Assembly: GCA_010015585.1 (NCBI GenBank)
Contig: ML975152.1
DNA: 64,000 bases
Reading direction: 5' to 3' (one strand)
Source of the DNA: Eremomyces bilateralis CBS 781.70
Taxonomy: Eukaryota
The position numbers and the translations under genes were made by a program. The notes below the pieces were generated by a model, which was not told the origin of the DNA, ran no database searches, and was given only the letters and a program-made list of their open reading frames with translations. Positions 18,893-56,467 of the stretch are shown here, piece by piece (position 1 is the first letter of the stretch; each line of letters starts with the position of its first letter).

Positions 18893-20069
18893 ATGTCGGA
18901 CGACTACGGCGATGTTGACCGCGGCTACGACAACTCTCACAAAGCTTTTCTGCAGGCCTTCCTCGCCCGAAGCGTGATGACGCTGGATGAAGCGAAACCC
19001 ATCCTCGCCAAGATATTGTCTGCTCACGGTATTATAATGGTCTATATACCCTGATGCTCTTCCCTAACTCGCTTCGCAGACGACCGGGAGACCCTCCCCG
19101 ACGACATCACCGCCACCGACATCCAATCCTACATCGCAACAGTAAATGCTGCCATCTCCCCCCTCGACTACGAAATCCGCCACACCCACCGCCAAACCGC
19201 CTCCCCTACCACCAACCACCCCACCTCCACCCAGCAACCCTCCCCACGAACCCTCATCTACGCCCTCGTCAACACCGTCTCCGACCTCTCTACCCAACTC
19301 GCCACCACCCACTCTCCCGACGACATCGCCTTCGTCAAGCGTGTCCTCGACGACATGTTCGAGAAAAACAACACCCCGAAACGCGAGACCATGGCCGTCA
19401 AGGGTATCGATGCGCTGCGCAACCGGCGGCCGCCGAACGCGCCGGAGACGCAGGCGCAGACGCCGCGGCGGAGCGAAGGGGGTGAAGGGGCGATGACACA
19501 GATGGCGAACGGGGTGGAGGCGGGGGGCGCGGGGGCAGAGACTCAGGGGAGCGGGGGAACGGCGTTGACGGTGGATCGGGCGGAGAAGGTGTTGCAGGGG
19601 TTGGTGGAGGAGGGGTGGTTTGAGAAGAGTCGAGCGGGGTTTCTGAGCTTGAGTCCGAGGGCGTTGATGGAGTTAAGGGGGTGGTTGTATGATACGTATA
19701 ATGAGGCGGTAGAGGGTGAAGAGGAGGGGGAGAGGTGGGTGAGGATTAAGGATTGTGAGGGGTGTAAGGATATCGTGACGATTGTAAGTGGTGGTGGCTC
19801 TGATAGATAGGGGTTTACTCGCTAACGGATGGTAGGGCCAGCGGTGCGCGAATCCCGATTGTCTGGTTCGGTTTCATAACTTCTGCGCGCAAGGGTTCTT
19901 TCGGAACGGGGCGGCGAAGAACTGTCCGCGGTGTCAGACCGAGTGGACGGGGCAGGACTTCGTGGGACAGGAGGCGGCGAAGGGGATGGCGGCTCAGAGA
20001 AGGCAGAGAGGACAGCGAGTGGGACGGGGTCAGGCGAGTGCCGAGGCAGTTGAGAGTGAGACCGAATGA
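18893..20069 (+). CDS. NSE1: Smc5/6 complex non-SMC subunit Nse1; 3 exons
   Basis: YDNSHKAFLQAF, GWFEKSRAGFLSLSPRALMELRGWL, RING-like CEGC...GQRC...C...H..C...CPRC. Confidence 0.9.
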
Positions 20070-42920: not shown

Positions 42921-43450
42921 GATGTTCTATTGATGCGCACTCAAATGGTATAATGGCTTCGACATCAAGACCATCATTCTGTCATGGCGATGACCATCTG
43001 TCTATGATGACAAGAATCAATATCAATGAAGGGTTCTGGTTCGGTCACGGAATACAAGAAGCAGTTGCTGATGGAGTCTAGTCACTGTACAGAATAACTT
43101 CAGTTGCTCGAGGATCACAGCACAGCCACTCAACCCTTTCTTTTCACTGACGCTTTGTGCCAATTGAAGGAGTGACGTGCAGCTACAAGGATCATTTACT
43201 AATAATACTGTGAGGACTGACGCTCTGCGCTTTGCGACTCCTCCGCATCGGCGCATCCTTCAGGAACAGGAATCAGGCAACACAATTTACACATCATATC
43301 TTCCATCCTTATTATTGCACAAGAAATAAGAACACCTGTTTCTTTCTCACCTCCTTCTCGTTGTGGCTCACTTCTATTTTTCCTCCCTTTGACCTGCATA
43401 TAACGCCTGCTTAGCTCCGTCCTCCTGAACATGCAGCTATAGAAATCACC

Positions 43451-53828: not shown

Positions 53829-54797
53829 ATGACGTCGAAAGTTATTATCGTCACTGGTGCATCTAGAGGCACGTTTTGGACTTTCCTATCATTGGTCTCT
53901 CCTTACCGATCCACGCATCCATTGGATAATTTGCATTGCACGTCGCATCAGCCTGCTTACACACCCCAGGGATTGGTGCCGCAGTCGCCCACCACCTCGC
54001 CCATCACCACCACCTCGTCCTCATCGCCCGCACCCACGACGCCCTCGCCCGCGTCGCCGCCACCTTCCCCGCCGACCGCGTGCGCATCGTCGCCGGCGAC
54101 CTCAGCGACCCGTCCGTCGCGCAGAAGGCCGTCGACGTGGCGATCGCGGCGTGGAAGCGCGTCGATGGACTAGTGGTCAATCATGGGGTGTTGGATCCGA
54201 TTAAGCGGGTTGGCGAGGCGGAGGTAGGGGAGTGGCGGGCGGCATTTGAGGTGAATTTCTTCTCGGCAGTGGGAATGGTACGTATGGGGCTCAATTGGGA
54301 TGCAATTGGGATGGAGTGGGTGGATGCTGACGATGTGTAGATTCAGGCGGCGTTGCCAGCGCTTCGGGAGTCCGGGGGGAATATCGTCATCACGTCGTCG
54401 GGGGCGGCGGTGGGTGCGTACAGCACCTGGGGCGCGTACGGAGCGAGCAAAGCGGCGCTGAATCACCTGGCCATGACGCTGGCGGTGGAGGAGCCGAGCA
54501 TCACGACGGTGTCCATCCGGCCGGGCGTGGTGGATACGGAGATGCAGCGGGAGATACGTGAGGTGCATCAGACGATCATGGATAAGAAAGACGCGGACAA
54601 GTTTGCGGCATTGAAGATGGAGGGCGGGTTGTTGCCCCCGGAGAAGCCTGGACATGTCATTGCGAAGTTGGCACTGGGGGCACCGAAGACGTTGAGTGGA
54701 GGATTTATGAGGTACGGTTTCCTGAGGTTGTATTTGACTAATCTACTAACATGCAAGCAGTTGGAATGATACTGCGCTTGCGGAATTCCAGGACTGA
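53829..54797 (+). CDS. Short-chain dehydrogenase/reductase (YIR035C/benzil reductase-like); 4 exons
   Basis: IVTGASRG|IG, VVNHG, TSSGAA, YGASK, RPGVVDTEMQ. Confidence 0.92.
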
Positions 54798-54885
54798 TGT
54801 CTACATGGACTCAGAGATCTAAACAAGCCAGATGTCAGCGAGCGGCCACTGACAGATTTGGTTCAAAAGGCTGTTAGGTAGGTAG

Positions 54886-54980
54886 GAGATCAGACGAAAG
54901 ATGAAAAGCTTTTTACATTTGTTTCAGCATGAGGGTAAACCCTTCAGCCTTAGCATGGAATGTTTGGGTTCATCAGGAGA
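54886..54980 (-). ncRNA. snR53: Intronic box C/D snoRNA, snR53-like, dual guide
   Basis: C box (C)UGAUGA 54970-54976; guide AUUCCAUGCUAA (54950-54961) + D' CUGA; AGGG/CCCU stem; C' UGCUGA; guide GCUUUUCAUCUUUCG (54895-54909) + D CUGA 54890-54893; inside intron 54819-55011. Guides complement recalled 18S UUAGCAUGGAAU and 28S CGAAAGAUGAAAAGC. Confidence 0.88.
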
Positions 54981-55288
54981 GGTGGACGTGAGAAGGAGAG
55001 TTGAGACGTACCCTTTGAACTTCTTAGATAAAGTAAAGATAGAGTAGATACATATCGAGATACACATCCAGATGCAGAGCCCATTGAAGATATCAACCGA
55101 GCCAGCAGTATCCTACACTCGCTAAACATTTCATGGTACTCATCCCACAGCCGATATGTTCAACATTATTCGGCCTCAACAAAGGTCTTGGGCATCGGCA
55201 CTACCAGAGGATTGCAAGTCGAACCTAGAATTATCGCCGTTAGCGAGAAAGTCCTCATAGCAGATTGAGAGCAATATTGATGAGAGAA

Positions 55289-55392
55289 TCCAAATCAGAC
55301 AGTCCTTTGGCTTTGGACAGGAAAATCGGCAGCTGCGTGACTTAAAAGCCACACTCCTAAGATAGGGGCGACACGAAAATTCATCATTTGGA
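55289..55392 (-). ncRNA. Intronic box C/D snoRNA, probably snR67-like
   Basis: Terminal stem UCCAAA/UUUGGA enclosing C box AUGAUGA (55381-55387) and D box CUGA (55295-55298); guide GUGUCGCCCC(UAU) + D'-like CUUA; internal hairpin GUGUGGCUU/AAGUCACGC; inside intron 55225-55421. Confidence 0.8.
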
Positions 55393-55847
55393 AGGGGAAA
55401 AATAGAAGAGTATCGACTTACCAGGACATCATAGCTCGACTGCAGTCCTCTGTCGAGACGGCTGCAGTTGTTGGGGATAGAAGAAAGGAATTAGAAAAAT
55501 TCTGCGAGAAGATAAAGTGTCCCGGGCCCAGTAAAAGCACAGGGCACTTCAGCGGAGCGGTTCCTGTATCACTGGATCGGAGCTGTAGTGAACACCCATG
55601 TCATCAATCGCTGTTCATCATCTATCCATTCCTCTCCAAGCCAGAAATTCCATGTTCCTACAAATGGCTCGCACATTCTCTTTCCATCCCCTTGTACCTA
55701 CATGTGCGTTGTGTATCTGTGCCTCTAATGGTGGATGAACCTGAATCCTGAAGAACTGCAACCAAGGAACCAAACCGCGTCAATCAATCGTCCCACGGGA
55801 AGACGCAGCTGCTTTGTATCTGAGATTCCATCCGCAGAAACGGGAAG

Positions 55848-56467
55848 ATGTCGGACCGCGAGTTTGGAGGTAAATACCCTCCGTTGGAAGGACGCAGTCC
55901 AGAGACGCTATATCGGCTAACATGGTGACTTATACAGGGAGCGACGACCTCTCCCTCCCCAAGGGTAATCCCCCCATCTCCCCCATTTCCCCCCATCTCC
56001 CACCACCCAACTAACCCCCCTAGCCACCGTCCAAAAGATCATCAGCGAGATCCTCGCACACGACAGCGGCGCGACGTTCGCCCGCGAGACGCGCGACCTT
56101 CTCATCGAATGCTGCGTGGAGTTCATCACGCTGGTCTCCTCGGAGGCGAACGAGATCGCGGAGAAGGACGCGAAGAAGACGATCGCGTGCGAGCACGTGC
56201 AGACGGCGCTGGAGCAGCTCGGGTACGGGGAGTACGTGCCGGAGATCTTGAAGGTGGCGCAGGACCATAAGAATCAGCAAGTGGTATGTTTTCTGTTGAG
56301 TGTGGGGGTGTTGGGTGGTGGGGGCTAATGGTGTGTAGCATCGGGAGAAGAAACATAGCAAGTTGGAGCAGAGTGGGTTGTCGACGGATGAGCTCATTCG
56401 GCAGCAGCAGGAGCTGTTTCGGTCCGCGACGGATAAGTTCAACTCGGCGCCGCAGGATGGGGAATGA
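55848..56467 (+). CDS. NCB2: Negative cofactor 2 beta subunit (NC2beta/Dr1); 4 exons
   Basis: MSDREFG..DDLSLPKATVQKIISEIL, RDLLIECCVEFITLVSSEANEIAEKDAKKTIACEHV. Confidence 0.95.

Follow-up and report, generated by a model that had tools for sequence, protein, structure and literature searches.

The DNA examined here is a stretch of 64,000 nucleotides (nt) of contig ML975152.1 (GenBank assembly GCA_010015585.1) from Eremomyces bilateralis CBS 781.70, a Dothideomycete by lineage lookup, and this whole stretch is referred to as the window. The minus strand of 54300-56200 was read, and its motifs were located by script, in the region where a short-chain dehydrogenase (SDR) gene and an NCB2-like gene, both on the plus strand, flank an interval without long reading frames of its own. 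Two predicted introns lie in this interval, and each of them (2/2) encloses one unit of a box C/D small nucleolar RNA (snoRNA). The two units, which resemble the snR67 and snR53 families of fungi, and their putative non-coding host gene are the subject of the present analysis.

Intron 1 (55225..55421, minus strand, 197 nt) begins with the donor GTAAGT at 55421-55416, carries the branch site CTAAC at 55243-55239 (branch A 55240) and closes with an acceptor TAG ending at 55225. Intron 2 (54819..55011, minus strand, 193 nt) is built in the same manner, with the donor GTACGT at 55011-55006, the branch site CTGAC at 54838-54834 (branch A 54835) and an acceptor TAG ending at 54819. The exons that they would join, likewise on the minus strand, are the 3' part of exon 1 (55422..55540, its end set by the GTAAGT donor at 55421 and its upper bound arbitrary), exon 2 (55012..55224, 213 nt) and exon 3 (54700..54818, with 54818 as first base and an arbitrary lower bound). 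An earlier interpretation made from the letters of this DNA, here called the sequence-only reading, had proposed two minus-strand introns of ~195 bp with these very signals and a full C/D snoRNA inside each; all of the signals were recovered where it had placed them and the boxes were located in both snoRNAs.

snoRNA 1 (55290..55391, minus strand, ~102 nt) is situated in intron 1 and possesses a C box AUGAUGA at 55387-55381, a D' box CUUA at 55361-55358 and a D box CUGA at 55298-55295, with the D' guide at 55377-55362 and the D guide at ~55316-55299. A terminal stem of 6 bp, CCAAAU/AUUUGG, is present in its minimum-energy fold. snoRNA 2 (54886..54980, minus strand, ~93-95 nt) is situated in intron 2, and its boxes are C (CUGAUGA, 54976-54970), D' (CUGA, 54947-54944), C' (UGCUGA, 54929-54924) and D (CUGA, 54893-54890), with guides at 54963-54948 (D') and 54908-54894 (D). 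Between D' and C' a 4-bp hairpin AGGG/CCCU can be seen by eye, of which the predicted fold pairs 3.

Comparison by eye with the cloned snoRNAs of Neurospora crassa in supplement 1 of Liu et al. 2009 (PMC2780460) revealed identity of the guides. The 17 nt directly after the C box of snoRNA 1, UUCGUGUCGCCCCUAUC, are identical to those of N. crassa CD26, so that the D' guide is the same over its 17 nt in a Dothideomycete and a Sordariomycete, and this string occurs once in the window. snoRNA 2 has both guides of N. crassa CD11, namely the 13 nt ACAUUCCAUGCUA before the D' box, at the same D' offset, and the 14 nt CUUUUCAUCUUUCG before the D box, each of them unique in the window; the presence of both CD11 guides in order and register within one 93-nt candidate cannot reasonably be chance. 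In the passages of PMC5824354 that equate families across fungi, CD_26 corresponds to snR67 and CD_11 to snR53, and the earlier assignment of the two units to snR67 and snR53, in that order, is thereby borne out. The likeness to N. crassa has its bounds: the C box of snoRNA 1 is the canonical AUGAUGA against AUGAGGA in CD26, its length is ~102 nt against 77 nt, and the D' guide of snoRNA 2 ends in ..CUAAGG where CD11 has ..CUAGUC. We hold it as nearly certain that the two snoRNAs are real.

The predicted targets of snoRNA 2 follow those of its family. Manual pairing against the target strings that supplement 4 of PMC2780460 gives for N. crassa yielded 14 contiguous pairs between its D guide and the 26S-Am356 string; for its D' guide, the 18S-Am793 string gave 11 contiguous pairs and the U6-Am47 string 9. 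In each of the paired targets the nucleotide reported as modified faces guide position 5. According to the family descriptions in PMC5824354, the 18S, U6 and large-subunit ribosomal RNA (LSU) D-guide targets of CD_11 are predicted throughout Pezizomycotina, the U6 target being predicted outside Saccharomycetaceae only and the LSU D-guide target in Pezizomycotina, Taphrina and Yarrowia and not in Saccharomyces cerevisiae.

Immediately after the C box, the D' guide of snoRNA 1 has the core CGCCCC, as in the snR67 family. Its 10 D'-proximal nt pair by hand (one G-U) with the N. crassa 26S-Gm888 string of supplement 4 (PMC2780460), and the same G stands at position 5 for this guide and for that of N. 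crassa CD48. In the family account of PMC5824354, the snR67-family D target U2724 is confined to Saccharomycotina, and the D' target G2619 is abolished in Dothideomycetes, Eurotiomycetes and Leotiomycetes, alignment position 25S-1898 (yeast G908) having taken its place; the pairing with the Gm888 string fits this reported switch from G2619 to G908. The D' guide is therefore most likely directed, as far as can be predicted from pairing, at the LSU G908-equivalent and not at the yeast snR67 sites G2619 and U2724.

SNORD31 and plant snoU31b share the D' core with snoRNA 1 (CGCCCC in SNORD31, UGUCGCCCC in snoU31b), which lies equally far from the C box and precedes a D' box of the form UCUUA or UCUGA, and SNORD31 belongs to clan CL00053, to which snR67 is also assigned in a comparative table of 2012. 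The three D'-proximal guide nt are UAU in snoRNA 1 against AGU in the SNORD31/snoU31b consensus, a difference that fits the reported target switch. For snoRNA 1 the name snR67 holds at family level only: in the account of PMC5824354 the U2724 target is limited to Saccharomycotina and the D' target has switched in Dothideomycetes; the earlier label of snR67 stands for the family and is not predicted to extend to the yeast target sites U2724 and G2619.

The 5' part of the same D' guide, which remains outside the G908 duplex, is the part common to the U31-class consensus (UGUCG), and the N. crassa authors paired U2 small nuclear RNA (snRNA) with the 5' 11 nt of this D' element over 11 bp (PMC2780460, supplement 4). 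A single D' guide might accordingly serve more than one target and hold old and new specificities together, the ancestral target in the peptidyl-transferase region not being simply abolished, a proposal which we put forward tentatively and think rather doubtful. The D guide (..AAGCCAAAGGACUGU) is by eye unlike the D guide of N. crassa CD49 for the U2724-equivalent site. With the D guide of N. crassa CD26 it has only AAGCCAAA in common, in a register shifted by 1 nt, and for that reason it is regarded as an orphan; this partly conserved guide (AAGCCAAA) may direct a further, undescribed modification.

The geometry of the two introns is nearly the same. The donor and the C box are 34 nt apart in intron 1 and 35 nt apart in intron 2, the D box precedes the branch A by 55 nt in both, and the 3' splice site follows the branch A after 15 and 16 nt, respectively. 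Both introns are about four times (~4x) as long as the neighbouring 49-nt SDR intron. Because of this near-equal spacing, CTGAC at 54838-54834 is the preferred candidate for the functional branch site of intron 2, and processing linked to splicing is favoured. In mammals, the processing of intronic C/D snoRNAs works best at a distance of roughly 50 nt upstream from the branch point. The spacing found here would make the locus a clean example of positional constraint on the processing of intronic snoRNAs.

How readily such an arrangement arises was gauged by a scan of both strands of the 64 kb window for [A/G/C]TGATGA followed 55-130 nt on by CTGA, with a GT[AG][AC]GT donor upstream and CT[AG]AC...YAG downstream as the intron criterion. 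There are 21 C/D-like motif pairs in the window, and the 2/21 that possess intron signals are the two snoRNAs described here. In dinucleotide-preserving shuffles (n=100) the mean was 0.02 intron-flanked pairs, and two were reached in 1/100. It is probable that both snoRNAs are intronic.

Precedent for a host of this kind is available from filamentous fungi. The N. crassa account in PMC2780460 gives 45/55 C/D snoRNAs as intronic, describes clusters I-V as conserved with yeast and their hosts as similar to mammalian UHG/gas5 with open reading frames (ORFs) of only 159-267 bp, reports confirmation of host splicing by reverse-transcription PCR (RT-PCR), and lists CD26 and CD11 both as intronic and on chromosome I. 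One snoRNA per intron of a non-coding host is reported in PMC3596301 for three other clusters across fungi. In budding yeast, snR67-snR53 is given as one of five polycistronic clusters in a methods passage of a bioRxiv preprint, and the cluster containing snR53 is called cluster 4 in a yeast genome paper. The statements of the sequence-only reading that the two snoRNAs are co-transcribed in yeast and that filamentous fungi keep such snoRNAs in introns of non-coding hosts agree with the bioRxiv list and with the N. crassa precedent of PMC2780460, respectively. Overall, we assign a probability of about 0.78 to the locus being the E. bilateralis copy of the fungal snR67-snR53 cluster in its filamentous-fungal intronic form, and sequence and literature, as far as they go, support the earlier interpretation.

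In S. cerevisiae the cluster likewise comprises both families, on one strand and in this order, and the 18S A796 function of snR53 is conserved; the yeast cluster differs from the intronic form described here in being unspliced, and its snR67 targets, G2619 and U2724, differ from the predicted G908-equivalent. The N. crassa conserved-cluster hosts, as far as they are described in PMC2780460, have only short ORFs like the host here, theirs being spliced and the one here being predicted to be so from sequence. Mammalian UHG and GAS5, with which Liu et al. (PMC2780460) drew the comparison, have, as is predicted for the host here, one snoRNA per intron, non-coding exons and stable intronic products; the present host, with two introns of ~195 nt, is far smaller and has no sequence relationship to them. 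What had been called a hidden spliced non-coding host is upheld as to the type of host, with one snoRNA per intron and no long ORF. The word hidden overstates its novelty, for fungal host genes of this type have been published before, and the finding is correct but ordinary. Full-text literature searches, which did not cover the supplements of PMC5824354, retrieved no description of an snR67-snR53 cluster in Dothideomycetes.

The following course of events can be proposed for the locus. A short non-coding host on the minus strand would be transcribed by RNA polymerase II from a start in the 427-bp gap that it has in common with its divergent neighbour, the NCB2-like gene; the product would be a co-transcript of three exons and two introns of ~195 nt. 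After splicing, each lariat would be opened by debranching, and exonucleases would then trim it as far as the small nucleolar ribonucleoprotein assembled on the C/D boxes. Stable snoRNAs of ~100 and 93 nt would thereby be released, and the spliced exons would have no coding role. The D' guide of snoRNA 2 would then direct 2'-O-methylation of the 18S nucleotide equivalent to yeast A796 and probably also of U6 snRNA A47, and its D guide that of an LSU adenosine (N. crassa A356). The most likely site of methylation under the D' guide of snoRNA 1 would be the LSU guanosine that corresponds to yeast G908.

One rival to this proposal concerns whether the two introns belong to one transcript. Both snoRNAs could be intronic and yet derive from two separate transcripts, or snoRNA 1 alone could be intronic and snoRNA 2 reside in a 3' tail, without any exon antisense to SDR. 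The first base of exon 3 is only 20 nt from the SDR coding sequence, which is awkward for a terminal exon, and intron 2 offers a second possible pair of signals, CTAAC at 54877-54873 with AG at 54850-54849, which counts to that extent against the intron as drawn. In N. crassa, the snoRNAs of cluster V each have a putative promoter, though co-transcription was shown (PMC2780460, in its account of that cluster). The 55 nt from D box to branch A, the same as in intron 1, would however be hard to explain if the 3' half of intron 2 were unused, and a second promoter could hardly be fitted into the 213 nt of exon 2. We consider such arrangements unlikely, and both snoRNAs to be probably on one transcript.

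A little less probable still is that the snoRNAs, though real, are set free by endonuclease cleavage and trimming from a polycistronic transcript that is not spliced, in the manner of budding yeast, with splice signals that are unused or vestigial. Intron loss in yeast snoRNA clusters was reportedly treated by Mitrovich et al. in 2010. Such a precursor has its parallels: yeast snR67-snR53, listed as polycistronic in the bioRxiv passage, is processed from an unspliced cluster, PMC3596301, in its treatment of cluster evolution, explains the yeast form, which is unspliced, by lost splicing signals and describes such loss in clusters of Saccharomyces relatives, and one N. crassa cluster of PMC2780460 includes an exon-encoded snoRNA. 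On the other hand, both introns here have full-consensus donors, branch sites and acceptors with matching spacing, Euascomycete clusters are stated in PMC3596301 to keep most snoRNAs in individual introns, and the N. crassa hosts were found by RT-PCR to be spliced (PMC2780460).

It is more improbable again that the host encodes a micropeptide with the snoRNAs as mere passengers. Exon 1, exon 2 (55224-55012) and exon 3 were joined by script into a spliced host model, in which an ATG at 55433-55431 in exon 1 opens a 19-codon ORF, MMSWFDLQSSGSADAQDLC, across the junction of exons 1 and 2, as had been noted earlier; two ORFs of 41-42 codons start in exon 2, and 42 codons (exons 1-2 and the start of exon 3) is the longest before the part antisense to the SDR coding sequence. 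A further open frame of 118 codons is wholly antisense to SDR and would require an exon 3 far longer than is likely. These ORFs would be the substance of a micropeptide, but none of the four minus-strand ORFs of the interval matched Pfam (0/4), the two stop-to-stop ORFs that cover most of exon 2 have no Pfam match, and the micropeptide candidates are shorter than the 159-267 bp ORFs of N. crassa hosts that the text of PMC2780460 judges non-coding. In exon 2 there is also no CTGA D box and no Rfam match at E<=10. The spliced host exons are thus predicted to be non-coding.

Certain results weigh against the locus being the snR67-snR53 cluster. The sequence-only reading had itself named a lack of Rfam C/D matches among the outcomes that would speak against it, and at the gathering score the whole 64 kb window gave 0 matches. 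Rfam was also run in E-value mode on 901, 112 and 106 nt, where no family named snR53 or snR67 appeared at E<=10, and the matches obtained were weak: for snoRNA 1, plant snoU31b (17.1 bits against a gathering score of 37, E 0.33) and SNORD31 (13.0 bits against 40, E 1.5) in the 112-nt search, with both alignments covering the guide and the D' box, and for snoRNA 2, Afu_455 (15.6 bits against 48, E 0.87) in the 106-nt search. snoRNA 2 has no terminal stem (stem length 0), as is by eye also the case in N. crassa CD11, and its C box starts with C and not with a purine, again like CD11. The target pairings were made with N. crassa strings and not with Eremomyces rRNA, and the membership of CD26 and CD11 in a single N. 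crassa cluster is inferred. The fold energies of snoRNA 1 and 2 are no better than those of shuffles (z -0.57 and -0.23). Fold energies at shuffle level are usual for C/D snoRNAs, and as evidence they are uninformative. A chance combination of motifs from which no snoRNA is made could appeal to the lack of matches at the gathering score and to these fold energies, but it is effectively refuted already by three guide strings (17, 13 and 14 nt) that recur unchanged in two cloned N. crassa snoRNAs (supplement 1 of PMC2780460) at the right positions relative to the boxes and in the yeast cluster order, and by the shuffle mean of 0.02 against the 2 intron-flanked pairs observed.

The plus-strand Rfam matches to leuA-Halobacteria and sR1, together with a match to P26, were dismissed as noise. 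Afu_455 was rejected as an ortholog of snoRNA 2, for by eye the 3' two-thirds of its consensus are of the N. crassa CD9 type (snR41-type) and not of the CD11 type. Its D' region, ACAuGCuAAGG, is close to the snR53-type guide CCAUGCUAAGG of snoRNA 2 (54948-54958, minus strand), and Afu_455 may represent a guide that was shared or moved between families in Aspergillus.

Two further C/D-like pairs of the window have 4-bp terminal stems. The one at 18974-19054 (plus strand) spans a coding exon and its donor site and was judged to be chance, and the one at 43004-43071 (plus strand, 68 nt) is without splice signals or a recognised guide and may be chance too.

In the probable first host exon, a pyrimidine-rich run, TTCCTTTCTTCTATCCCC, is present at 55471-55488 (minus strand). 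It is reminiscent of the 5' terminal oligopyrimidine (5'TOP) starts of animal snoRNA host genes. As regards promoters, no motif common to snoRNA and ribosomal-protein genes was reported for N. crassa or Aspergillus fumigatus in the relevant part of PMC4138321.

The identity of both flanking genes had been read correctly: the SDR protein matches PF00106 (E 3e-16) and the NCB2-like protein, a histone-fold protein, matches PF00808 (E 8e-16) in Pfam. The NCB2-like ATG is at 55848, with a protein start of MSDREFGG, on the strand opposite to the host and 427 nt from the first host donor, in agreement with the divergent layout that had been proposed. A public protein of E. bilateralis CBS 781.70 matches the SDR exon at 54341-54709 with 100% identity, the next matches (74%) being from other Dothideomycetes. 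That public SDR protein, P0001, has the C-terminus SWNDTALAEFQD, on account of which the stop codon is placed at 54795-54797 (plus strand). The last SDR intron (54712-54760, plus strand, 49 nt) and the last SDR exon (54761-54797, plus strand) are both wholly inside the proposed antisense exon 3 of the host. Divergence from NCB2 and an antisense last exon at the SDR 3' end, as earlier suggested, follow from this geometry if the host is transcribed and spliced as modelled.

For its part, the 3' untranslated region of SDR has to extend antisense across host intron 2 and snoRNA 2, so that the two genes would by necessity overlap convergently, and this serves as a small caution when antisense RNA-seq signal at SDR is interpreted. 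The snoRNA host would explain the apparently empty 1-kb gap between the SDR and NCB2-like genes and would enlarge the genome map of E. bilateralis by a pair of snoRNA genes and their non-coding host gene, and it would extend the snR67-snR53 linkage to an early-diverging order of Dothideomycetes. Beyond annotation, known snoRNA biology is unchanged by it.

A separate observation concerns the upstream part of the SDR gene. P0001 reads IIVTG joined to IGAAV (53829-53979, plus strand), which implies a GT donor at 53857, and it is without the ASRG of the cofactor motif TGASRGIG that is present in its relatives P0002 and P0003. A GC donor, GCACGT at 53869-53874, used with the same acceptor AG at 53968-53969 would restore TGASRGIGAAV, and the public SDR gene model probably missed a GC-AG intron.

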